64,000 nucleotides of DNA from Candidatus Sulfomarinibacteraceae bacterium (GTDB lineage Bacteria > Acidobacteriota > Thermoanaerobaculia > Thermoanaerobaculales > Sulfomarinibacteraceae). The stretch spans positions 671,710 through 735,709 of the forward strand of contig CAVTEP010000001.1 in the NCBI GenBank assembly GCA_963733915.1, in the 5' to 3' direction. A program made the position numbers and the translations under genes. Below the pieces are notes generated by a model. It did not search any database, was not told the DNA's origin, and saw only the letters and a list, made by a program, of their open reading frames with translations. Below, piece by piece: positions 7,278 through 54,067 of this stretch (position 1 is its first letter; every line of letters starts with the position of its first letter).

Positions 7278-9784
7278 CACGTGGTTTGCTACCTCGACAG
7301 CTCCCGTTGTTTCTGGTCCGCATCGGCCGCCTCTATCCGCGGGCGGTTGCCGCCGGTGCAATCCTGGCCTGGATCGTGGCTGGTCTGCTTGCCTCGCGAG
7401 TCCACATCGAGACCGACATCCTCTCATTGGTGCCCCGTGACAACCCGGTGGTCGAGGGCTTCAAGACCACCGTCGAACGATTCGGTTCGGTGGACACGCT
7501 TCTTGTCGTGGTTCACCTCGAGCCCGAAAGGGCGCTCGAAAGCTCGATAGACTTTGCCGATCGGCTGACCGAAAACCTGCGCAGCTGGGAGGACATCGAC
7601 TGGGTCGAGTACCGGGTCGACACTTCCGCCGAGGCAGCTGTTCCGCTGCTCGACCGGGTAACACTGTTTCTCGAGCCGGAGGAGCTGGACGAGGTTCTGG
7701 CGGGATTTGACGACGACGGCCTCGAGGCGAATGCCGTCCGGCTGCGTTCTCAGCTGATGGCGCCCCAGAGCCTGGTCACCAAGGACGTGCTGCGACTCGA
7801 CCCGGCGGGTCTCCTGCCGCGGATCTTGGCAAAAATCCGGTTTGGAGGCGTCGGTGTCGGGGTTGATCCCGATACAGGCTGCCTCATCGACCCCGGGGGA
7901 AAGCTCCTGCTGCTGATGGCAAAACCCGCTCGCCCGGCCCAGGACCTCGAGTTCGACCGCCGGCTGGTGGCGGCCCTGAACGACCGGGTGGCTGCGGTGT
8001 CCGAGGCGTGGATGGAAGAAAACGGAGAGACGGCGGCGCCGGCTGTCGAGTTCACCGGTGGCTATGTGGTTGCGCTCGACGACGCCAAGCTCATCACGTC
8101 GGACATGTTGGTCGGGCTCGTGTCATCCTTGCTCGGGGTCATGGTTCTGTTTCTGCTCGCTTTCCGAAGCCGTGCAGCTCTGGTTTACGCGTTCTTCCCG
8201 CTGGTGACGGGCATCGCGCTCACATTCTCTTTCGGGGCGCTCGTTCTCGGACGGATCAACTCCCTGACCTCGGCCTTTGGCGGGCTTGTTATCGGTCTCG
8301 GCATCGACTTCGTGATCGTGCTCTATGCACGGTATATCGAGGAACGCCAATCGGGAGCGTCCCATGATGACGCGGTGGATGCCATGGGCCGCCACACAGG
8401 GGTCGGAGTGCTGCTTGGCGCGGTGACGACAGCCGCTACCTTCTACTCGTTTTTGATCACAGATTTCGCGGGTCTGTGGGAACTCGGGCTCCTGACCGGC
8501 TCCGGGATCCTCCTGCTGGTGGTAACCGTCTACCTCATGCTGCCGGCCCTTTTGACCCTCGTCCAGCAAAGAGTCCGGCGCGACCGCCCGTTGCACCTGC
8601 GATCGTTTGGCGCCGATCATCTGTGCCGCGCGAGCCTCCTGAAACCGCGCGCGACCATCGCCGTCGCCGCAGTGATCACGGTGGCCCTGGGTGTTGGTAT
8701 CCGCGGACTCCGCTGGGACGACGACTTCAGAAACATGCGGTCGGGAGACAACCGCGCTATCCAGCTCCGGCAAGAGGTGATGGACGCTTTTGGCCTCCGG
8801 TTTTCGCCGATGGTGCTTCGATTCGACGGCATCGACGAGGGAGATGCTCTGGCCAAATGCCGCACCATCCTGCCGGAGCTCGAACGACTTGTGGACGGCG
8901 AAAACCTGGTTGACGTTGACACGATCGCCGGCGTGATACCGACACCGGAAACCCAACGTACGCTCATCGCGCGCCTTGAAAAAGCGGCGCCGTCGCTCGA
9001 CGGACTTGCGGGACGCTTCGATGATGCACTCCGCGCCGAGGGTCTCAACCCGGCAGCTTTTCGCGAGGGCATCGACCATTTGACGGTAGCGCTCGAACGG
9101 CGCCAACCGCTATCGCTCGCTGACCTCGATGGAACCCCGCTGGCACGGGTGGTCGACCGTTACGTGGCGGTGGCTGACAACGAGGTGTCTGCGGCCATCT
9201 ACTGCTATCCGCCGGTCGGTGAATGGCGTCGCGGCGCCTCACCCGCGCTCGCTGAGGTCCTGGCGAGGTATCCGGATGCGGTCCTCTCGGGGCCGAACAT
9301 CATCTCGGCGGAGCTCCGTGAGATCGTCTGGGACGATGCTATCGCCGCTGCGGTGCTCGGCATCGTGGTTGTTTTCATTCTGATGTGGGCCGACCTCGGT
9401 TCTCCATTGCGCGCGTTGCTCGCGCTCTTACCGCTGTTTGTCGGCATGGTGTGGATGCTCGGCGCGATGGCTATTCTCGGTCTCCGGCTCAACTTCTTCA
9501 ACATCTTCGTGGTGACGATGATTATCGGCATCGGCGTCGACTACGGGGTGCATTTTCTACACCGATGGTATGAGTCAGGAGGCGATCAGGCGGCGGTGGC
9601 CGCGACCGCAAAAGCGATCGCAGTTGCCGCCCTGACAACCATGGTCGGCTTCGGGTCGCTCGTGATCTCGCATTATCCGGGCTTGCGATCGGTTGGCGGC
9701 GCTGCGATTCTCGGGGCGTTGTCGACAGCCGTGCTTGGTATCACCCTGCTTCCGGCGCTGCTTTCAAGGAAGGACGTTTCATGA
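7274..9784 (+). CDS. MMPL/RND-superfamily membrane transporter (HpnN-like)
   Basis: ORF track 7193..9784. The in-frame GTG at 7274 overlaps the pgsA stop (GTGA). Two 6-TM bundles carry GLGIDFVIVLYARYIEE and GIGVDYGVHFLHRWYE motifs, separated by large periplasmic domains. Confidence 0.8.
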   Translation: MTRGLLPRQLPLFLVRIGRLYPRAVAAGAILAWIVAGLLASRVHIETDILSLVPRDNPVVEGFKTTVERFGSVDTLLVVVHLEPERALESSIDFADRLTENLRSWEDIDWVEYRVDTSAEAAVPLLDRVTLFLEPEELDEVLAGFDDDGLEANAVRLRSQLMAPQSLVTKDVLRLDPAGLLPRILAKIRFGGVGVGVDPDTGCLIDPGGKLLLLMAKPARPAQDLEFDRRLVAALNDRVAAVSEAWMEENGETAAPAVEFTGGYVVALDDAKLITSDMLVGLVSSLLGVMVLFLLAFRSRAALVYAFFPLVTGIALTFSFGALVLGRINSLTSAFGGLVIGLGIDFVIVLYARYIEERQSGASHDDAVDAMGRHTGVGVLLGAVTTAATFYSFLITDFAGLWELGLLTGSGILLLVVTVYLMLPALLTLVQQRVRRDRPLHLRSFGADHLCRASLLKPRATIAVAAVITVALGVGIRGLRWDDDFRNMRSGDNRAIQLRQEVMDAFGLRFSPMVLRFDGIDEGDALAKCRTILPELERLVDGENLVDVDTIAGVIPTPETQRTLIARLEKAAPSLDGLAGRFDDALRAEGLNPAAFREGIDHLTVALERRQPLSLADLDGTPLARVVDRYVAVADNEVSAAIYCYPPVGEWRRGASPALAEVLARYPDAVLSGPNIISAELREIVWDDAIAAAVLGIVVVFILMWADLGSPLRALLALLPLFVGMVWMLGAMAILGLRLNFFNIFVVTMIIGIGVDYGVHFLHRWYESGGDQAAVAATAKAIAVAALTTMVGFGSLVISHYPGLRSVGGAAILGALSTAVLGITLLPALLSRKDVS

Positions 9785-12209
9785 TCCGCGAATTAAAGCC
9801 GAGAGACCTGGCATGGCGGTGCCCGACAAGCTGGTTGCCCAAGAAGGACTCGACGACCGTCAAACCGGCATCGACGATCGTCGCCCAGGACCGTGCAGTC
9901 GAGGCGATTGCATTCGGCCTCGCGGTGGGCGGTATCGGGTTCAACGTTTTCGTCACCGGCATGTCGGGCACCGGACGGCTGACGACCATCAAGAGCTTTG
10001 TCGAACGCTTGGCCGAGTCAAAGAAGAAGCCGGACGACATCTGCTTTGTCTTCAATTTCCACAAGCCCGAAGAACCCTGCGCGATCTTTCTGGCGGCCGG
10101 GGCCGGAGGCCGCCTGCGGAATGGCATGGACGATCTCATCGAGGAGTTGTCCGAAAACCTGCCGGCAATTCTCAACGATCGCGATTTTCGTTCGCGTATC
10201 GAACGCGTGGTCGAACCCTTGCAGCGGCAGGAGCGCGAGATCATCGCGGCCTTCGAAAAGCAGGTCAGCGATGCCGGCTTCGTGCTGGTCCAGGTCCAGG
10301 CCGGGATGGTCACGCGACCTGAAATCCTGCCCGTCGTCGGCGAGCAGCCGGTGGCGCTCGAGAAACTCGGCGAACTGGTGGAGGCGTCCGCGATCAGCAC
10401 CGATCGCGCGGACGAGCTTCGCCAGGCCCACGCCAGTCTCACCGAGAGGTTTCGCGATGTATTCCAGGAGGTGGCGGAGATCCGTCGCACGGTCCAACAA
10501 CGAGTCGAAGACGTTCGGCGAAAGCTCCTGCAGCCCGCCTTCGATGCGGCGGTGAACAGGATCCGCAAGTCGGTCGGAGACCCCCGGGCAAAGCTCTATC
10601 TCGATGAGGTGGCATCTGACCTCGGCCAGAACCTGGAACTGTTCATGATCACTGACGAGGTCGCGCCGGCGGATGGCGACCGGTTCCTGCGCTGGCGGGT
10701 CAACCTCGTGGTCGACAATTCTGACACCGGCGGACGTCCGGTGGTGATGGAGACCGAGCCCAGCTACACCAATCTCTTTGGCACGATCGAACGCACGCTG
10801 ACGCAGTCGGGAGAGGCGGCCACTTCGTTCCTGCGGATTCGTGCCGGGTCGCTGATGCGGGCCAACGGTGGTTTCCTGGTTCTCAACGCCGATGACGTGC
10901 TGATGGAGCCGCGGGTATGGCCCGGTCTCAAGCGCGCCCTCAAGTTCCGGCGGGTCCAGATTCAATCGCTTGAGAGCCTGGTCTTGGGCGCTGCGCTCCT
11001 CAAGCCGGAACCGGTGCCGATCGACGTCAAGGTTGTGATCATCGGAAGCCGAGAGATCTACGATCTGCTTTTCAGGTACGACCCGGATTTTTCAAAAATA
11101 TTCAAGGTCCTGGCTGACTTCGACAATCGTCCTCGACACAACGAGAGGACATGCCCGCGACGTGCTGTCGGTGCTGCGCAAGGTCACCTTGGAAGAGGGC
11201 CTGCGCGAGCTCGATCGCAGCGGAATGGCGGCGATGCTCGAGGAAGCGGTGCGTTTCGGTGGCTGGCGACGGCAGTTCTCGAGCCGGTTTTCTGATATCG
11301 CGGATCTGCTCCACGAGGCCTCGTACCAGGCGGAGCGTGGCGGTGCGAACCGCATTTCCGGCAAGCACGTGGTCGCCGCTCGCGCCGCTCGCCGGCGGCG
11401 CCACTCGCTGACCGAGGATCGCTCACACGACCTTATCGAACAGGGAGTCATCCGGGTCGAAACGACAGGGGTTGCAGTAGGGCAGGTGAACGGGTTGGCG
11501 GTCTACGACCTCGGACACCACAGCTTCGGAAAACCGTCGCGAATCACCGCCCGGGTGGGGCTCGGACGCGAAGGTGTGGTCAATGTCGAGCGCCAGGCAG
11601 GGCTGTCCGGTCCGAGCTACGACAAGGGCGTGAGCATCCTTACCGGCTTCATCCGCGGCACCTTCGCCCGCCGCTCTCCGCTGGCCATGTCGTGCTCGGT
11701 GACCTTCGAGCAGTCGTACGGCGGCGTCGACGGTGACTCGGCTTCGTCAACCGAGGTCTACGCGATCCTCTCGGCCATTGCCGGTATTCCCCTGCGTCAG
11801 GATGTCGGCGGTCACCGGCTCGGTGGATCAGTACGGTCGAGTTCAGGCGATCGGCGGGGTCAACGAGAAGATCGAGGGCTTCTTCCGCGTGTGCTGCACC
11901 GGCGAGCTCACCGGCAGCCAGGGCGTATTGATTCCGGCGGCAAACGTCGCTGATCTCCAGCTGTCGAGCGAGGTGGTGGAAGCCGTCGGGGCGGGTTCCT
12001 TCCACATCTGGGCGGTGGATTCGATCGAGGATGGCATCGAGCTGTTGTCGGGAACGGTGGCAGGGGTCTGGAAGGAGGGTTTCGGGTGGCGTCCGAAAGC
12101 CAGTGTTTTCGGCGCCTGCCAGGACCGTCTCGACGAAATGGTGAGCCTGATGCGGCTGGCGGCCAAGGGCGTGGGCGAGACTTCTGAGCCGGAAATCGTT
12201 GATGGATAG
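9781..12209 (+). pseudogene. Lon-like ATP-dependent protease (N-terminal AAA-like ATPase plus C-terminal S16 Lon protease domain), split over three frames by two +1 shifts as sequenced
   Basis: ORFs 9781..11295, 11162..11953 and 11733..12209 join into one ~809-aa protein. It has a Walker-A-like VTGMSGTGRLTT, catalytic Ser in GVDGDSASSTEVYAILSAI and catalytic Lys in AIGGVNEKIEGFF. First break is between ~11120 and 11165; the second is at ~11806-11812 (gatgtcGgcggtcacc, expected QDVAVTGSVDQ). The ATG overlaps the MMPL stop (ATGA). Confidence 0.8.
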
Positions 12210-13295: not shown

Positions 13296-13413
13296 GAGTT
13301 GTAGAGTTTTGGGTTTTGAGTTATGAGTTCCTCCCGCCCGACCCCGAAGGACTCCCTATTCGGGGGGAGGGTTGGGTGGCAACTCAAAACTCAAAACTAT
13401 GAACTCAAAACTC
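13296..13413. repeat. E4: STR-armed GC-clamped hairpin, GAGTTTT-type arms
   Basis: Left arm gagttgtagagttttgggttttgagttatgagtt (13296-13329). Core cctcccgcccgacccc..loop..ggggggagggttgggtgg (13330-13379). Right arm aactcaaaactcaaaactatgaactcaaaactc (13381-13413). Confidence 0.85.
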
Positions 13414-17811: not shown

Positions 17812-17917
17812 GAATTCTCAGGTCTCAATTCTCAATTTTGAATTCCCTCCTCTCTTCGACTTCTGGGGGTGGGTCGGGGCAATTGAAAATTGAGAACTCA
17901 AAATTAAGAATTGAAAG
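17812..17917. repeat. E5: STR-armed GC-clamped hairpin, GAATTCT/CAATTCT-type arms
   Basis: Left arm gaattctcaggtctcaattctcaattttgaatt (17812-17844). Core ccctcctctc..ttcgacttct..gggggtgggtcgggg. Right arm caattgaaaattgagaactcaaaattaagaattgaaag (17880-17917). Confidence 0.88.
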
Positions 17918-17946: not shown

Positions 17947-18990
17947 ATGAAAAAAGCCCTGATCACCGGCATTACCGGCCAGGACGGCTCGTATCTCGCG
18001 GAGTTGCTGCTCGCCAAGGAATACGAGGTCCACGGTCTGGTCCGGCGCTCCTCGACCTTCAACCGCAGCCGCATCGACCACCTGAGGAAGGCGTCTCTCG
18101 GAGACCGCCACGTACGTCTCCACTATGGCGATCTCGGCGACGCCGAGTCGCTGACGACCGTGCTGCGACTGGTGAGCCCGGACGAGATTTACAACCTCGC
18201 CGCCCAGTCCCACGTCGGCATCTCGTTTTCGATGCCCACCTATACCGGCGACGTTTCCGGTCTCGGAGCCGTGCGACTGCTCGAGGCTGTGCGACAGGTC
18301 GCACCCGAGGCACGGTTTTACCAGGCGTCGTCGTCCGAGCTCTTTGGCAAAGCGAAAGAGGTGCCGCAGAACGAGTCGACGTCCTTCCACCCGCGCTCAC
18401 CGTATGCGGTGGCCAAACTCTACAGCTTCTGGGCTGCCGTCAACTACCGAGAGGCCCACGGGTTGTTTGCAGCCAACGGGATCCTTTTCAACCACGAGTC
18501 GCCTCGGCGTGGAGAAAATTTCGTGACCCGCAAGATCACCCGCGCGGTGGCTGAGATCGCGGGCGGTCAGCGAGACCGGGTGTCCCTCGGAAATCTCGAC
18601 GCCCGCCGCGACTGGGGTTTTGCCGGCGACTTCGTTGATGCGATGTGGCGAATCGTGCAGACGGACGAACCGGACGACTGGGTCGTCGGTACAGGCGAGG
18701 AACACTCGGTACGCGAATTCTGCGAGCACGCCTTCGCCCACGTCGGCATTGAATTGGAGTGGGCAGGTAGCGGGATCGACGAGGTGGGCCGGGACCGTTC
18801 GACCGGCGCCACGCGGGTGGTGGTGAACTCGCGGTACTTCCGGCCGGCAGAGGTCGATCGATTGCTGTCGGATGCCGCAAAGGCGCGCCGCGAGCTTGGT
18901 TGGGAGCCGAAGGTCGGATTTGAGGAGCTGGTACGGATGATGGTTGACGCCGACCTCGAAGCGGTCGGCGCGACCACGCTAGAACGTTAG
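17947..18990 (+). CDS. gmd: GDP-mannose 4,6-dehydratase
   Basis: ORF track 17911..18990; ATG at 17947 gives [22 protein letters not shown]. Also SSELFGK, YAVAKLY and [17 protein letters not shown]. The last residues TTLER* are encoded in the left arm of E6. Confidence 0.93.
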
Positions 18991-19106
18991 AACGTTGGAA
19001 CGTCACACGTTAGAACGATTTCAAGTTGGACGGCCGGGTCTCCGCCGGACGTGCTCCGGTTGGGTTGGCCGAACGTGTTAACGTTTTAGCGTTGAACGTT
19101 TTAACG
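18979..19106. repeat. E6: STR-armed hairpin, AACGTT-type arms
   Basis: Left arm ctagaacgttagaacgttggaacgtcacacgttagaacg (18979-19017). The GC-rich core includes ggttgggttgg. Right arm gaacgtgttaacgttttagcgttgaacgttttaacg (19071-19106). The gmd stop lies in the left arm. Confidence 0.8.
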
Positions 19107-20869: not shown

Positions 20870-20983
20870 GAGATATGAGTTTCGAGTTTTGAGTTTTGAG
20901 TTTTGAGTTGCGCGTTGCTCGACCCAACAGGATTGGGTTGGGTGAGGGATAACTAAAAACTCAAAACTAAGAACTCAAAACTG
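20870..20983. repeat. E7: STR-armed GC-clamped hairpin, GAGTTTT-type arms
   Basis: Left arm gagatatgagtttcgagttttgagttttgagttttgagtt (20870-20909). Core gacccaac..aggat..tgggttgggtgaggg. Right arm ataactaaaaactcaaaactaagaactcaaaactg (20949-20983). Confidence 0.88.
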
Positions 20984-20996
20984 ATGCTGATTACGT

Positions 20997-22745: not shown

Positions 22746-22768
22746 TACTGTTTCCAGAAAAAATTCGA

Positions 22769-22793
22769 GCCCGGGCTTCGGCCCGGGCTTTTT
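22769..22793 (+). terminator. Canonical rho-independent terminator downstream of the OmpA-family gene
   Basis: gcccgggc (22769-22776), loop ttcg, gcccgggc (22781-22788), then ttttt (22789-22793). It lies 24 nt after the stop codon. Confidence 0.8.
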
Positions 22794-22796
22794 CGT

Positions 22797-22912
22797 CGTT
22801 AGAACGTTTGGACGTTAGAACGTTAGAACGTTCCCGACCTCGCCAGTCATTGAAGATCTCGGGGTGGATGGGTGGGAAACGTTCTAACGTTCCAACGTGT
22901 AACGTTCGAACG
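22797..22912. repeat. E8: STR-armed GC-clamped hairpin, AACGTT-type arms, immediately after a canonical terminator
   Basis: Left arm cgttagaacgtttggacgttagaacgttagaacgtt (22797-22832). Core cccgacctcgcc..loop..ggggtggatgggtggg (22861-22876). Right arm aaacgttctaacgttccaacgtgtaacgttcgaacg (22877-22912). Confidence 0.88.
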
Positions 22913-22954: not shown

Positions 22955-23473
22955 ATGACCGATCGCGTCGGACCGGGTAACCTGCCGATTCTGGCCGTGC
23001 TGGGGCCATCCGATGCGTCGCCAAATGAATACGCGGTCGCGGAACGGGTCGGAGCGGCGGCTGCTCGTTCAGGATGGGTGGTACTTACCGGCGGAGGGTC
23101 GGGCGTCATGGAGGCCGCGAGCTGCGGCGCCGTCGAGGCGGGTGGCCTCACGGTGGGGATTCTCCCGACCGCGGTCTCCGGCAACGGCTACCCGAACCCC
23201 TGGGTGAGAATTCCGATCTACACGGGCGCCGGTAGTGCCCGAAATGCGTTCAACGTGCTGTCGGCATGCCTGTGCATCGCTATCGGCGGCGGCCCCGGCA
23301 CCTTGTCCGAGATCGCGCTGGCCCTCAAACACGGCATCCCCGTGTGGTGCTGGCAAAGCTGGGCTCTCACGCCGCCCCTCGGCTCCGACCGTCCTCTCCC
23401 CAGAAACTTCGGCACCGCAGACGAGCTTCTCGCTGCTCTGGAGATCGAGTTGCAGAAACGTTTGAACGTTTGA
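22955..23473 (+). CDS. TIGR00725/LOG-like (lysine decarboxylase-like fold) family protein
   Basis: ORF track 22808..23473. The ATG at 22955 is preceded by GGGAGG. Motifs: VVLTGGGSGVMEAASCGAVEAGG, GILP, IAIGGGPGTLSEIALAL. The upstream part of the ORF runs through repeat E8, and the C-terminal QKRLNV* lies in E9. Confidence 0.72.
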   Translation: MTDRVGPGNLPILAVLGPSDASPNEYAVAERVGAAAARSGWVVLTGGGSGVMEAASCGAVEAGGLTVGILPTAVSGNGYPNPWVRIPIYTGAGSARNAFNVLSACLCIAIGGGPGTLSEIALALKHGIPVWCWQSWALTPPLGSDRPLPRNFGTADELLAALEIELQKRLNV

Positions 23474-23493
23474 ACGTTCAACGTTTTAACGTT
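23456..23493. repeat. E9: AACGTT-unit quasi-palindromic repeat without GC clamp, in a convergent gap
   Basis: aaacgtttgaacgtttgaacgttcaacgttttaacgtt. It contains the stop codon of the TIGR00725-like gene. Confidence 0.8.
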
Positions 23494-25592: not shown

Positions 25593-25642
25593 CGATACCC
25601 CCCTCGCGTTGAGATCTGACGCCGGGAGTGTAGCAATTCCTT

Positions 25643-26005
25643 CGTTAGAACGTTAAAACGTTAGAACGTTAAAACGTTCGGCTCATCTGGAGATTCGTGG
25701 GATCGAGGCGTGAAGGTTTCGGTCGGCAAGGGCAGCGACAGGAGCGGCGACAGAATGCAAAGGCAGGGTCGGTCAGCAGCGGCCGGAGCAGCGACCATGG
25801 ATCGTGACGACGGTCGCTGTGGACTGCCCCTGACGCGGTCTCCAACCGCTGCCGCCGCCACTGGCGCCGTACCGTTCCAACGGACGCGACCAATAGCTTC
25901 TTTTGAGGGGGGTTGGGCGATCCCCTTTTCTCCTTTTCTCCTTTTCCGCTCTGCCTCTTGAGGGTGGGCGGAACGTTCTAACGTTCCAACGTTTTAACGT
26001 TCCAA
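25643..26005 (+). repeat. E10: composite nested element (~363 bp): AACGTT arm, GC-rich inner module, GGAGAAAA-type (as cttttcc) arm, GGGTGGGCGG clamp, inverted AACGTT arm
   Basis: Left arm cgttagaacgttaaaacgttagaacgttaaaacgttcg (25643-25680). Module ~25731-25859. ccttttctccttttctccttttcc (25923-25946). gagggtgggcgg (25959-25970). Right arm gaacgttctaacgttccaacgttttaacgttcc (25971-26003). Colinear homologue of E14. Confidence 0.85.
25731..25859 (+). repeat. GC-rich inner module, copy A (candidate structured RNA or MITE core)
   Basis: ggcagcgaca..aaggcagggtcggtcagcagcggccgg..gtcgctgtggactgcccctgacgcggtctccaaccgctgcc. It shares the blocks GGCAGGGTC(N4)AGCAGCGGCCG and CTGTGGACTGCCCCTGACGCGGYCTCCA with copies B-D. 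Confidence 0.75.
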
Positions 26006-26007
26006 TG

Positions 26008-26709
26008 TCAGTTCAGTGTGATGACCGCGTCGCCGACACCGACCGAGACCTCGACGCGGTGGGTGCCGTCGCCGGACCACGAGGCCGCATGGCTCACGAA
26101 ACCGCCGCTCGAGATCAACTCGCCGAGGACCGTGAGGCGGGCGTCGCCGACGCCACCGGCCGCCTCGGCCGACCTGTAGGCCGAGGCCGCGCCGAGGACC
26201 ACCGCCGTGCCGACGCCAAGGTCGACCACGACGTCACCATCGGCGGCGTCCACCTCGATATCGCCGACTCCAGAGTCGATTTCCACCCCTGCCGTGATAC
26301 CCCGGATTGCGATGTCCCCGACACCGTGGTCGAGCGTGAGGGCGATCTGCGGCGGCATGCCGATCGTCCATCGTTCCTCAAAACGCCGATCATCGTCCGC
26401 GGACGGGTGGATGCCGAGTACCAGGCGACCACCTTTGATGGAAGTCTCGAGGGACGCGGCTTCGACCTCCCGCTCGGCCTGCCGCTTGGACGAGAAGAAT
26501 CCGCCCCGTCTTGGTGTCAGAACCACCTCGATGGAGATCTCTTGAGCGCCCTCGACCGCGACGATGCTGACGTCACCGATGCCGCTATCGAGGTCGACGG
26601 AATCGATTCCGGCGAGCGGAAGGGTCTCGGACAAGGTGCGCGGACCGCCCGCGTCTGCGGGTAGGGCGAGAAGCAAGAGAACAGACAAAACGAGGACGGT
26701 TCTTTTCAT
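26008..26709 (-). CDS. Secreted DUF4097-like beta-strand repeat protein
   Basis: Signal peptide MKRTVLVLSVLLLLALPADA. Repeated G(V/I)GD(I/V)xI/V motifs: DSGIGDVSIV, HGVGDIAIRG, DSGVGDIEVD, VGVGDAVITL. Confidence 0.65.
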   Translation of the reverse strand: MKRTVLVLSVLLLLALPADAGGPRTLSETLPLAGIDSVDLDSGIGDVSIVAVEGAQEISIEVVLTPRRGGFFSSKRQAEREVEAASLETSIKGGRLVLGIHPSADDDRRFEERWTIGMPPQIALTLDHGVGDIAIRGITAGVEIDSGVGDIEVDAADGDVVVDLGVGTAVVLGAASAYRSAEAAGGVGDARLTVLGELISSGGFVSHAASWSGDGTHRVEVSVGVGDAVITLN

Positions 26710-38921: not shown

Positions 38922-40629
38922 ATGCTTCGCCGGAGAGGGAATTCGTGCGGTCCGATCCTACCATGGCTGCTCGGTCTGGTTCTGGTCGGGTGCGGGCCGC
39001 CGAGCGGAGACGACCCGGGGATGGCAACGCGACCGGCGCCGAATATCGTGCTTGTGGTTGTCGACACCGTGCGCTCGGATCATCTGAGTTGTTACGGCTA
39101 TCAGCGACCCACCAGTCCCAACCTCGATCAGCTGGCGTCGCAGAGCCTCGTGTTCGTGAATTCCTTTGCCACTTCGACCTGGACGCTGCCTTCCGTGGCG
39201 ACCCTCCTGACCGGCCTGCTCCCCGATCAGCACGGACTGAAGACGACCGATGACAGGCTGTCGGAAGAGATTGAGACGGTTGCCGAGCGCCTGCAGGATG
39301 CCGGCTATCAAACGGCGGCGTTCACCGACGGTGGCTTCCTCGATCCACTCTGGGGCTTCGCACAGGGATTCAATCGTTACGACAGCACCGCCGGAGAAGC
39401 CTGGGACCCGAAAGACGTGTCGGTTATCGAGGCGCAGGCTTCCGCGTGGTTGCGCGAAAACCGCCTCGAGCCGTTCTTTCTGCTCGTCCACACCTACGAA
39501 GCCCACCAACCGTACCGCTTTCAACCCGGGTTCTCCGAGAGGTTTCTGGGCAACGAAGAAATAGAAACCGAGTCCGAGGAGATCCTCGCCTGGGACCTCT
39601 ATCGCAATCGCGGCGACAACGACTTTCTACGCAGGGGCGTGGCGCTCTACGACGGAGAGATCGCCAGGGCCGATCACTACATCGGACGATTGATCCAGAC
39701 CCTTCGCGAGACCGGCGGCTTCGACGACACGGCGATCATCGTGACCTCGGATCACGGCGAGGAGTTCCTCGAGCACGGAGGGGTCGAGCACGGGACTGGC
39801 AAGGTGTTCGACGAAAACATCCGGGTTCCATTGATCGTCAAGCTCCCGGGTGTCACCGAGGGGATGCGGATCGAGACCCCTGTGTCTGGCGTCGACCTTG
39901 CCCCCACGGTTCTCGGCATCGCCGGCCTCGATGTTCCGAGAAGTTTCGCCGGTCACTCCGTGCTGGCACGAGCAGTTTCCGAGGTCCCGAATCGACGGGT
40001 GTTCGCGCACGGGCTGAACTCGTTCCCGGAGATCGACGAGGAGCGTTATCGGCTCGACGCCGATCGATGGTCGCTGGTCTTCGATGCGGTCCAGGACCAG
40101 GTATCGGTCTTTCGACCTCGAGAGCGACGCCCAGATGCGGACGGCACTGCCATCGATGGCTCCCTTTGGCGATGAGGATCTGATCGCCCACCTCCAGTAC
40201 ATTCTCGCCTGGTGCTCCGGCCAGACGCGTCACGTTATGCGTCTGCCCGCCGGGTCGACCGAGCTGTTGTTGCCTCGTCATTCGTCGGTGAGGTCGGCGG
40301 TGCTGTGGGAGGGTTTGAAGAGCAAGTCCCTCGAGGTTGGGGTGAAACGACGGTTGTCGCCAGAGTTCACATATACCCTCGCATTCGATCTCGAGCCATC
40401 TGCTGATGCTCTGCGATTCAGACTTGCGCGCGCGGCGTCGCCACGCCGGGAGTCCCTCAGAGTCCGAATCGCAGCCGCGTCGCAACCCACCGCCGATCCG
40501 CTGCCCGTTCATGGACCCCTCCCGCCACCGCTGGTCATCCTGATGGCAAGTCGGATTTACCAGCCCCTAGAGGTTCAGATCGATTCCGAGGCGGCAGAGG
40601 AGTTGCGGGCACTCGGATACCTGCAGTAG
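38922..40629 (+). pseudogene. Sulfatase-like (alkaline phosphatase superfamily) lipoprotein, interrupted by one +1 shift as sequenced
   Basis: ORFs 38922..40175 and 40084..40629 join at ~40110 (gtctTtcgacctcgag; removing one T gives VSVFDLESDAQ). Motifs: lipobox LVLVGCG, VVVDTVRSDHLSCYGY and SDHGEEFLEHG. The nucleophile motif reads STWTLPSVATLLTG (Thr in place of Cys/Ser, Val in place of Arg). The C-terminal EELRALGYLQ* is a typical family ending. Confidence 0.75.
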
Positions 40630-40750
40630 GTAGGGGAGAATCGCCCGTCCAGATCGCGGCCAAGGCGCAGACCTCAACACTTCGATCCAATTGACGATCA
40701 CCTGTCCGCTGTTATCATTGGCCGGTGACGACAAATCCAGGGAGAGGGCG

Positions 40751-44118: not shown

Positions 44119-44121
44119 GCC

Positions 44122-44243
44122 CCATCCACCCACCCTTCCGCGAAAAGGAGAAAAGGAGAAAAGGAGAAAAGGAGAGGGGGAGAGGGAGCAGAGGCTGGGA
44201 AAGGGGAGGGTGGGTGGTCTCCTCTTCGCCTTTTCCCCTTTTC
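44122..44243. repeat. E17: element with interleaved order: C clamp, (GAAAAGGA)x4 arm, G clamp, complementary ccttttcc arm
   Basis: ccatccacccaccc (44122-44135). gaaaaggagaaaaggagaaaaggagaaaaggaga (44142-44175). ggggagggtgggtgg (44203-44217). tctcctcttcgccttttccccttttc (44218-44243). Confidence 0.8.
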
Positions 44244-44294
44244 ATTTATGCGATTCGAACATCCAAATCCAAACGCTTGCGCTACACTCGGCCG

Positions 44295-44789
44295 GTGACA
44301 TCCAAGAGAATCGTGCAGGTTGGGCTTCTGATTGCGGTCATCGTGGTCGTGCTTGCGGTGCGCCATTATTTTTCGCCGGGAGAGGTCGTGAGGCGGCAGC
44401 TCGTTGCCACCATCAACGCATTCGAAGACGAACGGATGCTGGCCGTGATGTCGGCGATCTCCCGCTCCTACTCTGACCCCTGGGGTCTGGATTACGAAAC
44501 CCTGGCCGGTGTTCTGCACGAGCTGATGGATACCTATGACGATCTCCAGGTGGACCTCGTTTTCGACAAGCCCGAGGTTGGGGAGGACGGGGTTCGGATC
44601 GGTTTCCAGTTTGTCCTCTGGGGCAGTGACCAGGGAACTCGGGGCTACATTGTCGGGAGCCTGTCAGCGCCGTGCACTGCGGTTCTCGTGTGGCGCAAGG
44701 AACAGCCCGGTTGGCGGCTGGCGTCGACCGCCGAGCTCGATATCCCCGAGCTTCGCAATGAGCTTGAGGCGATGCGCAATCACCATTAG
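44295..44789 (+). CDS. Hypothetical signal-anchored protein (~164 aa)
   Basis: This is the 3' part of ORF 43656..44789. The upstream part overlaps glgA and repeat E17 and is rejected. The GTG at 44295 gives MTSKRIVQVGLLIAVIVVVLAV (charged n-region plus TM). The stop TAG is at the edge of E18. Confidence 0.5.
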   Translation: MTSKRIVQVGLLIAVIVVVLAVRHYFSPGEVVRRQLVATINAFEDERMLAVMSAISRSYSDPWGLDYETLAGVLHELMDTYDDLQVDLVFDKPEVGEDGVRIGFQFVLWGSDQGTRGYIVGSLSAPCTAVLVWRKEQPGWRLASTAELDIPELRNELEAMRNHH

Positions 44790-45194
44790 AACGTGTGAAC
44801 GTTCAAACGTTAGTACGTTCCACCCGCCCACCCTCAGGAGGCAGAGGGGAAAAGTGGAAAAGGGGAAAAGGGGAAAAGGAGCCATCGCAGATTTCAATTT
44901 CGGATTTTCCGCCCAAATCTCCCCGAAGCTGTGGGACCCGTCCGATAAACCGTCGATCAGGGGCAGCGGCACGAACAGCGACAGCGGCTGGAGACCGCGT
45001 CAGGGGCAGTCCACAGCGACAACATTTTGAAAGACCGATTCGAACTGCACCGGTCGCTGCCGCGGTCGTTGCTCTCTAGCCCCGCCTCTGCGGTCTGTCG
45101 CTGTCCCTGACCGCCGTTGCAACGAATGGCACCAACGACTTTATGGGGGGAGGGTGGCCCCCTTTTCTCCTTTTCCCCTTTTCTCCTTTTCTCC
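44785..45194 (-). repeat. E18: composite element (~410 bp) in inverted orientation relative to E10/E14, with GGAAAAG / CTTTTCC arms flanking the inner module
   Basis: attagaacgtgtgaacgttcaaacgttagtacgtt (44785-44819). ccacccgcccaccc (44820-44833). (ggaaaag)n at 44848-44880. Module ~44960-45115. ggggggagggtgg (45145-45157). cccccttttctccttttccccttttctccttttctcc (45158-45194). Confidence 0.85.
44960..45115 (-). repeat. GC-rich inner module, copy D (reverse orientation)
   Basis: On the + strand: ggggcagcggc..ggctggagaccgcgtcaggggcagtccacagcgac..gctctctagccccgcctctgcggtctgtcgctgtccctgaccgcc. This is the reverse complement of the blocks conserved in copies A-C. Confidence 0.75.
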
Positions 45195-46238
45195 TCAGGC
45201 ACGCATGCTCTTCGCCGTGATCTCGATCGCTCGCGCGATGTCCTCATCGCTAATGTGATAGTGCGTCACCATCCGGATGCTGTCGCCCCCGAGGGGGTGA
45301 CAGAGCACGCCGTCGCCGGCGAGGCGTGAGGCAAGCGCTGCGGCGTCCAAATCTGAGCTTGGTGCCAGCGAAAAGAAGACGATGTTGGTTTCGACCGTGT
45401 CCGGGTCGAGGACCACGCCGGGGATCTCGGCCAGCCCGACGGCGAGCTCGTGCGCACGACGATTGTCCTCACCGAGCAGGGGCAGCACCTCCTCGAGCGC
45501 CACCAACCCGGCGGCGGCGATGACCCCGACCTGGCGCATGCCGCCACCGAACATCTTGCGGATGCGGCGCGCCTCGATGATGGCGTCGGCGTCGCCGACG
45601 AGGAGTGAACCGACCGGTGCGCCGAGCCCCTTGGAAAGACAGAACATGATTGTGTCGCAGCCGGCGCCGAGCTCGGCCGCCGAGACGCCGAGCGCCGCCG
45701 CCGCGTTGTGGATTCGGGCCCCGTCGAGGTGAACCGGAAGGTGGTGACGACGGGCAACGCCGATAAGCTCGTTCATCCGAGCCGGCGGTGTGACGTGACC
45801 GCCGGCGAGGTTGTGGCTGTTTTCGAGGACCACCAGCGAAGTCGGCGTCCGGTATCCGGTCCGAGGCTGAATCGCTCTCTCCAACTGCTCCGGGCTGATG
45901 ATTCCGTCGTCGGTCGGGATCGGACGTGGGAGAGCCCCGGAAAGGGCCGCCATCGCGCCCATCTCGAAGTTGAACACGTGGGCGCCCGCCTCTCCGACCA
46001 CCTCTGATCCGGGGTGGGTGTGGAGGTGGATGGCGATTTGATTGCCCATCGTGCCGGTCGGTACGAAGACTGCCGCCTCTCGCCCCATGAGCTCCGCAGC
46101 CCGCTCCTCAAGGCGGTTGACGGTCGGATCCTCGCCGTAGACATCGTCACCGACCTCGGCCCTCGACATGGCCCGGCGCATGCTGTCCGTGGGATGTGTT
46201 ACCGTGTCGGATCGCAAGTCGATCAGGGGTTTGTTCAT
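45195..46238 (-). CDS. ltaE: Low-specificity L-threonine aldolase (PLP-dependent)
   Basis: [19 protein letters not shown]...[16 protein letters not shown]...[13 protein letters not shown]...[12 protein letters not shown]. Confidence 0.9.
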
Positions 46239-46301: not shown

Positions 46302-46970
46302 ATGAATGAAGACAAGTCCAATGATATCTTCATTTTCCCAAAATGGACCTGGATACTGCGACCCGCTGTGGCGGTCGGTGCGGTGGGTGGTCTGTTGTAT
46401 GCGACGGTGGTCGTGGCCTTCGGGTTTTCGCCGCTGGCGACGGATGTCGGCTATGCCCCCGTCCAGCCGGTTCCCTACAGTCACGCCCTCCACGTAGGGC
46501 AGCTGGGCATGGACTGCCGGTATTGCCACGACACCGTCGAGCACACCGCCCGCGCGTCTGTCCCTCCCACTCAGACCTGTATGAACTGCCACAAGACGGT
46601 GCGCGCCAACTCGGAGAAGCTGATTCCCGTCTTTGAGAGCTATTCGACCGGTATGCCGGTCGAATGGATCCGGGTCCACGATCTGCCCGACTACGTCTAC
46701 TTCAACCACTCGGCGCACGTGAGCCGCGGCGTCGGCTGCGTCTCGTGCCACGGCCGCATCGACACGATGGAGGTCGTGACCCAGGTCAAGCCGCTCAGCA
46801 TGGGTTGGTGCCTCGACTGCCACCGCAATCCCGAGCGCCACCTGAGGCCGGTCGACTCTGTATTCCAGCTCGATTGGGTACCGGAGGAGGACCAGCTCGC
46901 CCTGGGTACGAGGCTCCGGAAGACCAACGACATCAATCCATCGCAGGACTGCAACACATGCCATCGATGA
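46302..46970 (+). CDS. actA: Alternative complex III subunit ActA (pentaheme cytochrome c)
   Basis: Five CxxCH motifs (CRYCH, CMNCH, CVSCH, CLDCH, CNTCH) and an N-terminal TM. First gene of the actABCDEF cluster. Confidence 0.88.
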   Translation: MNEDKSNDIFIFPKWTWILRPAVAVGAVGGLLYATVVVAFGFSPLATDVGYAPVQPVPYSHALHVGQLGMDCRYCHDTVEHTARASVPPTQTCMNCHKTVRANSEKLIPVFESYSTGMPVEWIRVHDLPDYVYFNHSAHVSRGVGCVSCHGRIDTMEVVTQVKPLSMGWCLDCHRNPERHLRPVDSVFQLDWVPEEDQLALGTRLRKTNDINPSQDCNTCHR

Positions 46971-49900
46971 TGAATCCAAACTCGAACGGAGTGAAGTATT
47001 GGCGGAGTCTCGACGAGCTTGCGCAGACCCCCGAGTTTCGGCAGGCCGTGCAGCGAGAGTTTCCCGGTGATGATTGGGACCGGCTGCCCCCGGCGACGCG
47101 CCGCCAGTTCCTCAAGGTCATGGGCGCCTCGATGGCGATGGCCGGGTTGACGGCCTGTCGCTGGCCGGCGGAGGAGATCGTCCCCTTTGCACACCGCCCC
47201 GAGGGACGGACGCCGGGCGTGCCCGAGCACTACGCGACCTCCATCGAGCTCGCTGGCGTCGCGCTCGGAATGCTCGTGACCTCATTCGACGGCCGCCCGA
47301 TCAAGGCCGAGGGCAATCCGATGCATCCGGACAGCCTCGGAGCGCTGTCCGCGATCGCTCAGGCCAATGTCCTCCAGCTCTATGACCCGGATCGCAGCCG
47401 GCGGCTCCTGCTGCGCGAGAACGGCCAGCAGTTCGTCAAGGAGTGGGTCGACTTCGAGGCCGCCGCCGCCGAGCTCTTCGCGGGAAACGGCGCGGGTGTC
47501 GCGGTGCTGGCGCAGGCTTCGTCATCTCCGACCCGGGCGCGAATTCGCGACCGGTTTTTGAGCAGCAATCCGGAGGCTCGCTGGTACGAGTACGAAGCGG
47601 TGTCGAGGGACAACGAGCGGGAAGGCATGCGCATGACCTTCGGTTCGGCAATGCGGGTGAACCCTCACCTGGAGAAGGCGGGTGTCGTCGCCTGCTTCGA
47701 TGCCGACCCGCTCTTCGACCACCCTTCGTCGCTGCGGCTGGCGCGCGAGCTTGCGGCGGCACGCAACCCCGAATCGGGCAGCGGAGCGCGCCTCTACGTC
47801 GCCGAAAACAGCTTCAGCCTGACCGGCGTTCGCGCCGACCACCGGGTGGCGGTGGCGGCGGCGCGGGTCCCGGCCGTGCTGGCCCTGGTGACCCACCTGC
47901 TCGTCGCCGAACACGGTCTCGATCTGCCGGCCGCGGCGGCCGGGTACGCCGGTGCGAGCTCTCAGACGGCCTCCGATGCCGAACAACGGTTTGCCGAGCG
48001 CGTCGCCGAAGACCTCGTCTCTGGGCGGGGTTCGGGATTGATCCTGGTCGGCCCGCGTCAGGCGCCGGCCGTCCACGCCCTCGCGGCGGTGCTCAACGAG
48101 GCGCTCGGGGCGTCCGGTTCCACCGTGACCTACACCGTCGCGCCCGATCCCGACAGGCCGACCCATATGGAGGCCATCACCGCCCTCGGGTCCTCGCTCC
48201 GCGCCGGATCGGTCCAGACCTTGCTGATGCTGGGCGGCAACCCGGCCTATGACGCGCCTGCCGAGATCGAGTTTGGCGAGCTCCTGGCCCGGGTGCCGGT
48301 GTCGATCCACCTCAGCCTGTACGACGACGAGACCTCGCAGCTTTGCACCTGGCATCTGCCGCAGACGCACGGCCTCGAAGCGTGGGGCGATGGCGCCGGC
48401 TGGGACGGCACTCTGACCATGAGGCAGCCGCTCATCCAGCCGCTCTACGGCGGTCGCTCTCAAATCGAGGTGTTGGCGCTCGCGGCCGGTCTGAGCTCGT
48501 CCTCCGGTTACGAGCTGGTGCGCGAGAACTTGCGCGCCGAAGTGTCTGACGGCGATTTCGAGAATTCGTGGCGGCAGGCAATCCACGACGGCGTCGTCGT
48601 CGGCAGTGCCCCGGCACCGGCGGCCCCCAGGCTCGAGCCGGGCCGTCTCGCAGTGGCGGTGAGCGCACTTCGGTCGCTACTCGACGAAGACTCTCCCGGG
48701 ATCGATCGCCCCGAGCTCGTGCTGACCGCCGATTCGCGGGTCTGGGACGGACGATTCGCCAACAACGGTTGGCTGCAGGAGCTCCCGGACGCCCTGAGCA
48801 AGATCACCTGGGACAACGCGCTCCTGATTTCTCCGGCCACGGCGCGCGAGATCGGCATCGATGACGGCGAGGTGGTGGAGGTCGAGGCCAACGGGCGGGC
48901 GATCGAGTTGCCGGCCTACGTTCTTCCCGGCCAGGCACACGCCAGCGTGACGGTCGCCCTCGGGTACGGTCGAACGGCCGCCGGGCAGGTCGGCAACGGC
49001 GTCGGCGTGAACGCGTACCCGCTGCGGACGGCAAACGACCCGTCCATCCAGTCCGGAGTGAGGCTTCGCGGAACCGGCCGCACCTACAAACTGGCAACAA
49101 CCCAGGATCACTTCGCGATCGATACCCTGGGCTTCCAGGAACGAAACCGCCGGGTCGGGGATCTCGTCCGTGAGGCCTCGTTGGACGCCTACCTGGCAAA
49201 CCCCGGTGTTTTCCACGAGCACGATCACCACCCCCCTCTCGCGTCATTGTGGAAGGACCACGAGTACGAGGGCGAGCAGTGGGGCATGGCCATCGACCTC
49301 AACACCTGCATCGGCTGCAACGCCTGTGTCGTCGCCTGTCAGGCGGAGAATAACATCCCGATCGTGGGCCGCGAGCAGGTCCTCAACCAACGCGAAATGC
49401 AGTGGATCCGGATCGACCGGTACTTCAAAACCAGACCGGACGTCGCGGCTGACGAGGTGGACGGGGCCGAGGTGGCCTTCCAGCCGATGACCTGCGTCCA
49501 TTGCGAAAACGCGCCGTGTGAGCAGGTGTGCCCGGTGGCAGCCACCCAACACACCGTCGACGGCCTCAACGCCATGGTCTACAACCGTTGCGTCGGCACC
49601 CGGTACTGCTCCAACAACTGTCCGTTCAAGGTCAGACGTTTCAACTTCTTCAACTACCACAAGAAGCTCGAAGACACCACCAAGATGCAGTTCAATCCGG
49701 AGGTCACGGTACGGTCGCGCGGCGTGATGGAAAAGTGCACTTTCTGCGTGCAACGGATCCAGGCGGTTCGGATTGCGGCCGGCAACGAGCGCCGGCCGAT
49801 TGCCGACGGCGAAATCGTGCCCGCCTGCGCGCAGACCTGTCCGACCCGCGCAATAACCTTCGGGAACCTCAACGACTCCTCGAGCGAGGTCTCGAGGTCG

Positions 49901-50059
49901 CGTGAGGAGCCGCGCTCCTACGCCAGCCTGGCCGAGCTCAACATCAGGCCCCGCACCCACTATCTCGGACGGTTGCGCAATCGGGCCGACGGCGATGGTC
50001 CGTCGGGTCATGGCCGGCCGGACGCCGCCGCCGACGCCCACGGGAAGGAGTCGGCCTGA
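46958..50059 (+). CDS. actB: Alternative complex III subunit ActB (molybdopterin-oxidoreductase-like domain fused to 4Fe-4S ferredoxin domain), TAT signal
   Basis: ORF track 46664..50059. The ATG at 46958 (or 46967, ATGA overlap) gives [21 protein letters not shown]...[19 protein letters not shown]. The C-terminal part has four Cys clusters: [42 protein letters not shown]...CAQTCP. Confidence 0.9.
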
Positions 50060-50060
50060 A

Positions 50061-51518: not shown

Positions 51519-52084
51519 TGAGCGGCCAGAAGATGAACTCCGGGGCTGGGCCGGGCCTCTACGCCTACCTGGTGACCTTCGACAAGGTGGACGAACTGCT
51601 TGTTGCTGCCGCCAGGGTTCGCGATGCGGGATATACGCGTTGGGATGCCCACACACCATTCGTTATTCACGGACTCGACGCCGCGATGGGGATCAAGAAA
51701 ACCGTTCTGCCGTACATCGTGTTTGCAGCCGGTCTGACCGGCACTGCGGCCGGGATCCTCCTGCAGTGGTGGACCAACGCTGTCGACTACCCATTCCTGA
51801 TCAGCGGCAAGCCGCTCTTCAGCCTGCCAGCCAATATCCCGGTCGCCTTCGAGACGACCATTCTTTTCGCCGCCCTCAGCGCGTTGATCGGCATGCTCGC
51901 GTTGAATGGGTTGCCGCAGCTCTCGCATCCACTGTTCCAGAACAGATCGTTCAAACACGCCACCGATGATCGGTTTCTCATCTCCATCGAAGCCGCGGAC
52001 CCGCTGTTTGACCGGGTCGAGACGCGCGAGCTCTTGGAGGCATTGTCGGGTGGGGCGGTTGAAGAAGTCGAGGTGCTGCCGTGA
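51515..52084 (+). CDS. actD: Alternative complex III subunit ActD (DUF3341)
   Basis: [45 protein letters not shown] followed by two TM segments. The start overlaps the actC stop. Confidence 0.82.
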
Positions 52085-52729: not shown

Positions 52730-52739
52730 CGAGGCTCAC

Positions 52740-53954: not shown

Positions 53955-54059
53955 GAATTCTCAATTCTCAATTCTCAATTTTGAATTACCCATTCTCACC
54001 GGAAAAATCGGGGAGGATGGAAGGGAATTGAGAACTGAGAATTCAAAACTGAGAACTGG
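53955..54059. repeat. E19: STR-armed GC-clamped hairpin, GAATTCT/CAATTCT-type arms, directly after actF
   Basis: Left arm gaattctcaattctcaattctcaattttgaatt (53955-53987). Core acccattctcacc..ggaaaaatc..ggggaggatggaaggg. Right arm aattgagaactgagaattcaaaactgagaactgg (54026-54059). Confidence 0.88.
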
Positions 54060-54067
54060 AGTTTCCG

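Follow-up and report, generated by a model that had tools for sequence, protein, structure and literature searches.

Small non-autonomous repeats, such as repetitive extragenic palindromes (REP), bacterial interspersed mosaic elements (BIME), miniature inverted-repeat transposable elements (MITE), BOX elements and heptamer arrays, are common in bacteria, and their origin and spread are mostly unexplained. Two intergenic elements of this general kind, E10 (positions 25643–26005, plus strand, 363 bp) and E14 (34854–35226, plus strand, 373 bp), are reported here from a 64 kb stretch of DNA from a Candidatus Sulfomarinibacteraceae bacterium, termed the window. This DNA is chromosomal, has a GC content of 63%, and carries housekeeping genes, among them SecA, IMPDH, GlgA, an OPT transporter, a class II amidotransferase and those of alternative complex III. 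The named proteins nearest to its SecA and amidotransferase, at 72–87% identity, are from Acidobacteriota (Thermoanaerobaculales, Candidatus Sulfomarinibacteraceae). Each element shows outer arms of tandem 8-mers with an AACGTT core and, between the arms, an interior with a GC-rich module. The module is found at two more sites in the window, E13 and E18. It is very probable that E10 and E14 are copies of one paralogous, non-coding repeat, with real presence/absence polymorphism between genomes. They are best described as a non-autonomous mosaic hairpin repeat, similar to REP doublets, BIME and MITE and nested in AACGTT arrays, and not as a conserved regulatory region.

REP elements are mobilized in trans by REP-associated tyrosine transposases (RAYT). 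In Proteobacteria, REP doublets form hairpins (REPIN), and BIME are mosaics of REP types (PMC3116915, PMC3733652). The REP itself is a conserved imperfect palindrome of 20–40 nt with a GTAG or CGTC head (PMC3733652). E10 and E14 are similar to these systems in that they are extragenic and concentrate at the 3′ ends of genes and in convergent or co-directional spacers, in their long imperfect hairpins of two inverted halves, in their mosaic of a few motif types, in being gained or lost between related genomes, and in having no target-site duplication or coding capacity; the enzyme, if there is one, is encoded elsewhere. The attributes of a REPIN, i.e. two inverted units that form a hairpin, extragenic and without target duplication, are all displayed here. 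However, the arms consist of 7–8-mer arrays with many unit families per genome instead of one conserved 20–40-nt palindrome, and the composite is 3–4 times the length of a REPIN and nests a second GC-rich hairpin. Neither the GTAG nor the CGTC head motif is found in the element, which by this mark is not a REP. The sole nearby GTAG (GTGTAGCA, 25626–25633) is also present at the empty sites of two relatives, L027 and L013, and looks like the −10 region of the OPT gene promoter. No RAYT is found in the 64-kb window.

Examples of bacterial MITE are the Correia element (CREE) of Neisseria, RUP of pneumococcus and Nezha of cyanobacteria. A MITE that bears a minisatellite is found in Porphyromonas gingivalis (PMC4596501). 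E10 and E14 fall within the size range of MITE (non-coding, less than about 600 bp), and the similarity extends to the inverted ends, the multiple copies, the intergenic location, the filled and empty sites and the tandem repeats that can occur internally. They differ in that a target-site duplication is not demonstrable, the "terminal inverted repeats" are already there, with no element, at empty sites and at other places, the same interior appears with three kinds of arm, and no matching parent insertion sequence (IS) is known.

Intergenic heptamer repeats include the short tandemly repeated repetitive (STRR) sequences of cyanobacteria. Heptamer arrays are also formed by GGGAATC in Xanthomonas and GGGGAYT in Nostoc (Rehm et al., 2015, PMC4692102), and by TAACTGA in Beggiatoaceae, Cyanobacteria and Bacteroidetes (MacGregor, 2015, PMC4679880). 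In Xanthomonas, 70–75 convergent inverted pairs are able to form stem-loops (PMC4692102). The arrays of the window resemble these in unit length (7 nt, here 7–8), in unit number (about four, here a median of 4.4), in being intergenic, near stops and rare between divergent genes, and in that function and origin are unexplained. Only the arms of E10 and E14 are intergenic 7–8-nt arrays in this sense; the 250-nt interior is not. Further differences are the many AT-rich unit families in one genome, in contrast to one G-rich unit, the CCCACCC/GGGTGGG box that each array adjoins, the documented filled/empty pairs, and the use of arrays as outer arms of nested composites with a paralogous interior. 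BOX elements of Streptococcus pneumoniae, with the organization boxA-boxB(n)-boxC (PMC3049150), are likewise modular intergenic repeats with a tandem internal module, a predicted stable structure and an unexplained mobilization mechanism. But BOX is unrelated in sequence and host, and has a fixed module order, one tandem module and no nesting in resident arrays.

Structure of the composites and their module copies

E10 and E14 align colinearly from end to end with a mean column identity of 80% (MAFFT). The preliminary description of this DNA had proposed the same parts in the same order and orientation at the two sites, and this applies to all six parts, with E14 now placed at 34854–35226 and not at 34857–35228. 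Identities are 27/30 for the left AACGTTNN array, 12/14 for the YGGCTCATCTGGA block, 153/186 (82%) for the GC-rich module, 24/27 for the CCTTTTCY array, 8/9 for the second G-box and 22/22 for the right array. With the arrays stripped, the interiors are 76% identical, with a score of 67.5 as against 4.4 ± 2.3 in dinucleotide shuffles (z = 28) and a blastn E-value = 8e-15. Since the interiors match without the arrays, the similarity is not an effect of low complexity or confined to the arms, and the earlier view that the two are diverged copies of one composite (interiors 76–82% identical) is borne out. The alignment gaps of 6, 22, 4, 12, 4 and 7 nt show that no reading frame is conserved. Open reading frames listed within E10 and E14 overlap real genes of the opposite strand.

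The left outer arm of E10 (25643–25678, plus strand) consists of 4.5 tandem units of the 8-mer CGTTNNAA, with an AACGTT core; Tandem Repeats Finder (TRF) gives a period of 8 with 4.5 copies and a period of 16 at 100% match. The arm borders the promoter region of the OPT gene on its −35 side. The interior starts with the left terminus CGGCTCATCTGGAG (25679–25692, plus strand), which is identical to E14 34884–34897 at 12/14 positions and in the minimum-free-energy fold pairs, partly by G-U, with CTCTTGAGGGTGGGC at the right end. It is followed by the GC-rich module (25693–25904, plus strand), a long imperfect hairpin whose halves are degenerate CAGCGRC/CAGGGNC runs and their complement, with a core, GGACTGCCCCTGACGCGGTCTCCA, that is invariant across copies. 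The first G-box, GAGGGGGGTTGGGCG, is followed by three CCTTTTCY units (TRF period 8) that have no partner arm (together 25905–25949, plus strand). This part has the form of a small stem-loop with a T-rich tail, and its segment 25905–25928 scored as terminator-like; the same combination of G-box and CCTTTTCY array is found in E14, in E18 and at 44200–44243. The linker CTCTGCCTCTTGA and the second G-box, GGGTGGGCGG (25950–25971, plus strand), form the right terminus of the interior. The right outer arm (25972–26005, plus strand) has about four units of AACGTTNN (TRF) and stops 2 nt short of the stop codon of a minus-strand gene (26008–26709). Its first 14 nt, AACGTTCTAACGTT, are identical in E14 and nearly so in E18.

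In E14, the left outer arm (34854–34883, plus strand) shows 3.75 units of AACGTTNN (TRF) and holds the end of the amidotransferase gene (33389–34861), i.e. its final three codons and the TGA stop. The independent JGI protein P0370 (99.4% identical) has the same arm-encoded C-terminus, ..IASQR. The interior (34884–35204, plus strand) is colinear with that of E10 and consists of TGGCTCATCTGGAA, the GC-rich module (34898–35115), the first G-box (35116–35133), a degenerate CCTTTTCY array (35134–35181), CTCTGCCACTCGA and the second G-box (35191–35204). The right outer arm (35205–35226, plus strand) has 2.75 units of AACGTTCT (TRF, 100% match) and encodes both the stop codon (35211–35213, minus-strand TAG) and the five C-terminal residues of an inositol-monophosphatase-family gene (35211–36209). 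Amidotransferase C-termini vary at this site, with ..VLPPIASQR in the window, ..VLPPQ in protein P0369, and ..GTFERQNVETL in P0373, where an AACGTT array is read through.

The outer arms are able to pair across the interior, as the preliminary description had stated for a distance of about 300 nt. In E10 the left arm matches the reverse complement of the right at 31/34 positions, and the pairing extends over 41 nt at 88% with 279 nt in between; in E14 the figure is 21/22. Single-stranded E10 is predicted to fold as one nested hairpin of about 180 bp with an energy of −180 kcal/mol (z = −7.0). The E14 fold is less clean (z = −3.4).

Four copies of the interior module are present in the 64 kb. 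They have different flanking genes and pairwise identities of 70–76% (z = 28–40). E13 (33041–33322, plus strand) is the third copy and consists of CAGCTCGTCCGGA, the module and TTCGTGGATCGGTGGGTGG, without AACGTT arms; an array of four AAATCCG units is found next to it at 33316–33346. E18 (44790–45195, minus strand) is the fourth and is an inverted composite; its reverse complement, which the preliminary description had singled out for comparison, carries the module within the above range of identity. On the minus strand E18 displays an arm of four GGAGAAAAGG units, a C-box, the module, a G-box with an AAATCCG-type array and an arm of four CCTTTTCC units, and then CTCTGCC..TGA, GGGTGGGCGGGTGG and an AACGTT array. 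The pairing arms of E18 are GGAGAAAAGG (GAAAAGG type) and CCTTTTCC, four units each, and the AACGTT arm is without a partner. The fold has an energy of −189 kcal/mol (z = −4.6), and both ends of E18 touch the stop codons of convergent genes. The run CCTTTTCC array, CTCTGCC..TGA, GGGTGGGCGG, AACGTTCTAACGTT is common to E10, E14 and inverted E18 at 83–90% identity, whereas E13 and E18 have in common the G-box with the AAATCCG array after the module, and E10, E14 and E13 share the left block. The pattern of shared parts is thus reticulate and mosaic. A hairpin of the module consensus has 53 pairs with a covariation term of −0.06 kcal/mol, from four sequences only.

The copied unit, about 300–350 nt long, extends from YGGCTCATCTGGA to GAGGGYGGGYGG, and AACGTTCTAACGTT is probably part of it. 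Because AACGTTCTAACGTT, the first 14 nt of the right arm, is kept in E10, E14 and E18, it is assigned to the copied unit, and the left arm is assigned to the resident array.

Filled and empty sites in related genomes

Syntenic loci in relatives were found via homologues of the flanking proteins. Identity to the window at four-fold sites is 0.79 for L031, 0.67–0.69 for L027 and L029, 0.62 for L015 and 0.46 for L013. The E10 site, 415 nt long in the window, measures only 76 nt in L027 and L028, two contigs of separate sample origin. Its flanks can be aligned as far as 25672 on one side and from 25982 on the other, with 83–85% identity. The empty site retains a short array of CGTT period, CGTTAAATCGTTCTATCGTTTCAACGTCAATCC, with one left-type unit followed by right-type units. 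At the E14 site, the 349 nt of the window are replaced in L031 by about three AACGTT units, within which the convergent genes overlap by 6 nt, and the flanks are 88–91% identical. The interior and the right arm of E14 are specific to the window in this comparison; the inositol-phosphatase-family protein of L031 ends earlier (..ELGS*) and the right arm is missing there. Genes that flank the empty E10 and E14 sites are 85–91% identical to those of the window, and the breakpoints at both sites fall within AACGTT arrays. The preliminary description had pointed out that ancient syntenic intergenic regions with no polymorphism would speak against a mobile repeat; here E10 is absent from L027 and L028, and E14 from L031.

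The E13 module is missing in L027, L029, L030 and L031. In the first three of these the C-box side and the side with the G-box and AAATCCG array are orthologous to the window, and the module is replaced by a mini-hairpin of about 50 nt; in L031 the site has an unrelated perfect palindrome. The module is absent (no match at E ≤ 1) from about 29 kb of the close relatives L027–L031. The four-fold identities of 0.79 (L031) and 0.67–0.69 (L027/L029), set against 0.70–0.76 between the paralogues, fit proliferation around or after these splits. More distant relatives have other hairpin families at the same sites. The interior at the E14 site of L013 was considered as an orthologue of E14 and rejected, as none of the four window copies is closer to it than the others, in either orientation; it shares with them only membership of one broad family of GC-rich hairpins.

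Several other observations concern these loci. The E14 left terminus at 34884–34893 (GGCTCATCTG) is similar to the reverse complement (GGCTCATAGA) of L031 2588–2597, just past the empty-site array, where the inositol-phosphatase gene ends and ATGAGCC (the reverse complement of GGCTCAT) is found; the resemblance may be fortuitous or may reflect how the element originated at the E14 site. In L029 (2663–4858) and L030 (5395–5727) a 731-aa sulfatase directly follows the amidotransferase with no spacer, while the window, L013, L016 and L017 have the inositol-phosphatase gene at that position, which indicates a local rearrangement exactly at the E14 site in the L027-type lineage. Since synteny is broken by the sulfatase, L029 and L030 are of no use for the E14-site comparison. 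A canonical intrinsic terminator at 22764–22790 (GCCCGGGCTTCGGCCCGGGC with a T run), found after an OmpA-family gene, is conserved in L015 and L027. The AACGTT hairpin beside it is missing from L015, and in L027 a hairpin of the AAGAGTT/AACTCTT type takes its place.

Origin and spread of the composites

The account that we consider fairly likely as a whole is that of a paralogous mosaic hairpin repeat that sits in resident arrays, turns over fast and spreads without staggered cuts. The unit consists, in order, of the YGGCTCATCTGGA terminus, the GC-rich long-hairpin module, the G-box with the CCTTTTCY array, the CTCTGCC linker, the GAGGGYGGGYGG terminus and its own AACGTTCTAACGTT stretch, and each copy lies within or beside a short resident AACGTTNN array at a gene end. 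The resident array and the AACGTT stretch of the element serve together as outer arms, and make the whole region one very long nested hairpin. E10 and E14 belong to a lineage-wide population of fast-turnover intergenic hairpins that have about four tandem 7–8-mers beside CCCACCC/GGGTGGG boxes. Gain and loss would take place by way of hairpin and/or array homology, and not by staggered transposase cuts. Candidate routes of gain are single-strand hairpin transposition by a trans-acting REP-type (RAYT or IS200-IS605-like) enzyme encoded elsewhere, and template switching or gene conversion guided by dispersed AACGTT arrays. Loss would take the form of a deletion by slippage from one direct AACGTT repeat to another at the base of the hairpin. 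Such hairpin- or array-guided spread without target duplication is suggested tentatively. Copies would persist only where neither a gene nor a promoter is broken, and effects in the cell, e.g. through stable stem-loops in which mRNAs end or through the terminator-like unit of G-box and CCTTTTC, would be secondary.

In agreement with this account, no transposase, RAYT or reverse-transcriptase domain is present in about 50 window proteins scanned against Pfam (including the RAYT/IS200 Y1 transposase family); the preliminary description had also seen no transposase. Several results weigh against the account. Pattern scans of 185,579 GTDB species genomes and of JGI metagenomes with the exact invariant core GGACTGCCCCTGNNGCGNNCTCCA, a 24-nt pattern that is over-specific, yielded no further copies; the 12 + 9 loci obtained are all chance matches, confined to the 24-nt pattern itself and in high-GC genomes. 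The module copies are 24–30% diverged and therefore give no sign of very recent activity. The mini-hairpin at the E13 site of L027 may be a remnant of the module, and the direction of the polymorphism may be either gain in the window lineage or loss in the relatives. At the E14 site of L013, which is a distant relative, AACGTT arms enclose a GC-rich hairpin that is related to the module. Lastly, the 6-bp AACGTT duplication may be a true target-site duplication, as AACGTT adjoins the interior on both sides in both copies; with AACGTT part of the resident repeat, such a duplication is not demonstrable.

That last point bears directly on a classical MITE, i.e. an IS deletion derivative moved by the DDE transposase of its parent, with AACGTT (or the TA/TTA inside it) as the target that is duplicated on insertion. 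The preliminary description had called the composites MITE-like. Their size, non-coding nature, inverted ends, four module copies and filled and empty sites agree with this, as does the direct contact of AACGTT with both sides of the interior in E10 and E14. The ends of the interior, GGCTCATCT and AGGGTGGGC, are weakly inverted and paired in the fold, with the help of G-U/G-T pairs only. But AACGTT recurs at 8-nt intervals to the left and right of the interior, and the empty sites themselves have several copies of it. The arms, which had been taken for terminal inverted repeats, do pair (31/34 and 21/22) but are probably not private ends of the element, with arrays of the same type in the empty sites and at eight or more other loci. 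The E13 module has AACGTT on neither side and E18 on one side only, and parts are shared reticulately between the copies. As had been noted at the outset, target-site duplications are not identifiable: after comparison with the empty sites none is definable, the breakpoints being inside arrays, and none is found outside the arrays at E10 or E14, and the TTCC/ATCC motifs on both E10 flanks also occur in the empty site of 76 nt. Neither the window nor the gene lists of five syntenic loci of 6–22 kb (L013–L017) include a transposase. A MITE of this type is considered unlikely, and the element behaves more as a mosaic hairpin repeat of the REPIN/BIME kind than as one moved by cut and paste.

A conserved functional RNA, i.e. 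a 3′-UTR (untranslated region) element, small RNA or bidirectional terminator that was duplicated and kept for its structure, would account for the very stable folds (z = −7, −3.4 and −4.6), the location at gene 3′ ends, the terminator-like score of the G-box and CCTTTTCY part, and the scarcity of arrays between divergent genes (1/6). Xanthomonas heptamer repeats of similar distribution are reportedly mostly transcribed (PMC4692102). Yet the composite is missing at the orthologous sites of the closest relatives, whereas the nearby canonical terminator is kept in all of them. No Rfam family matches anywhere in the window at gathering thresholds, and E-value mode gives only chance matches to miRNA-like hairpins; the covariation among the four copies is weak (−0.06 kcal/mol). 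The E10 module is oriented antisense to both of its neighboring genes, and the plus-strand fold is favored in 12/15 hairpins irrespective of gene direction, which fits the positive GC skew and a mutational bias. These results make an RNA of this kind decidedly improbable. It is very improbable that the regions are purely local products of slippage and inverted duplication (template switching), each formed independently of the other loci. The arms mirror each other's unit variants, both E10 arms show a 16-nt super-period, unit number shifts between relatives (5 versus 3 at 23457–23493), and empty sites contain mini-palindromes, all of which are consistent with local events. However, a complex interior of about 250 nt that does not look repetitive is 70–82% identical at four loci up to 19 kb apart with unrelated flanking genes, so independent origin is impossible for it and local origin applies at most to the arrays alone. 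The probability of an artefact of long-read metagenome assembly (fold-back or chimeric reads) is close to nil. The split of the Lon-like gene at 9781–12209 into three overlapping open reading frames hints at indel errors, and L014, from a related assembly, is rich in frameshifts; but hairpins of the same type are found in independent short-read assemblies, namely L015 (a k141_-named contig), the JGI contigs L027–L030 and L031, and the independent protein P0370 has the arm-encoded C-terminus of the E14 site. The element has no plasmid or phage match apart from one 36-nt low-complexity hit.

The preferred reading, a mosaic hairpin repeat in resident arrays, would if array-guided join simple-sequence arrays with mobile palindromic repeats, and provide a testable model for the creation and erasure of intergenic hairpins. 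A bolder and rather improbable conjecture is that the arrays at stop codons, with their CCCACCC/GGGTGGG boxes, are dedicated att-like landing pads of an undescribed system that swaps hairpin cassettes, with either a new hairpin-specific DNA enzyme or an enzyme-free array-guided template switch. If true, landing pads would explain the site-specific swaps of hairpin family in sister genomes, the seamless junctions and the presence of a 300-nt interior inside a resident AACGTT array, and would give bacterial heptamer repeats (STRR, GGGAATC, TAACTGA) a mechanistic role. The loci are of interest for their clean filled/empty pairs, seamless junctions in 8-mer arrays, nested hairpins and cassette-like family replacement in little-studied uncultured Acidobacteriota.

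Arrays and hairpins elsewhere in the window

Arrays of 7/8-nt units are found in 20/34 intergenic regions of the window: 6/7 convergent, 13/21 tandem (co-directional) and 1/6 divergent. Nearly all spacers with the 3′ end of a gene have them. There are 37 period-7/8 arrays, of which all but one (36) are non-coding; a stop codon is touched or included by 13. Over nine sequences, i.e. the window and eight related ones, the median unit number of 91 arrays is 4.4, and the genomes have unit families in common. Units include AACGTTNN, AATTAGG, AATTCTC, AAAACTC, CCTTTTCY and AAATCCG. The AACGTT type accounts for 16 sites or clusters in the window, most of them without an interior, and eight or more are at places other than the elements. 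The array at 23457–23493 has five units in the window and three in L027.

The usual hairpin layout consists of about four 7–8-mers, a CCCACCC-type box, a short loop, a GGGTGGG-type box and about four inverted 7–8-mers. Simple hairpins with this common grammar are found at 13304–13413, 17812–17912, 18976–19106, 20875–20985, 22797–22912, 36233–36458, 44119–44246, 53955–54060, 54383–54500, 56071–56180 and 62370–62473. They belong to several unit families, with 75–86% identity within a family. The one at 44119–44246 has the order C-box, arm, G-box, arm and is unable to form one nested hairpin. The alternative complex III cluster (46302–53951), with cytochrome c7-like, 4Fe-4S, NrfD-like, ActD and cbb3-type cytochrome c genes, shows no intergenic hairpins until its end at 53955. 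The 515-nt intergenic region at 40176–40690 has neither tandem arrays nor a Pfam-annotated open reading frame, which is unusual for the window.

For 12 of 15 window hairpins the RNA of the plus strand folds more stably than that of the minus strand, regardless of the direction of the flanking genes; the difference reaches 15 kcal/mol, and G-U pairs are more numerous in the plus-strand fold. The GC skew of the window is +0.027, and the plus strand carries most genes. The asymmetry suggests a C-to-T bias of the replication strand. The strand comparison of fold energies and G-U counts was therefore discarded as a sign of RNA function, since the asymmetry follows GC skew and not transcription.

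The stops and the last 2–5 codons of at least six genes lie within arrays, with array-borne stop codons at 18988–18990, 23471–23473, 34859–34861, 35211–35213, 44787–44789 and 62377–62379. Arrays that supply the stops and last residues of many proteins also matter for annotation, as they cause spurious gene calls in high-GC metagenome-assembled genomes. An example is the 184-residue "gene" called at L013 1373–1927, inside an E14-type hairpin region, with no Pfam match. The Lon-like protease (LonB/LonC domains) is represented by open reading frames at 9781–11295, 11162–11953 and 11733–12209, either a pseudogene or a product of assembly indel errors.

A motif, TGCTACACT / TATAGTGTG, is conserved 9–45 nt upstream of start codons. 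It is kept in L013, L016 and L027–L031, where everything beyond it is replaced. In the window it occurs at 25624–25634 (minus strand, TGCTACACTCC), 36218–36228, 44283–44293 and 33362–33372 (CTATAGTGTG). The motif is probably a −10 promoter region. Two genes, that at 35211–36209 and one that starts near 44299, would be leaderless.

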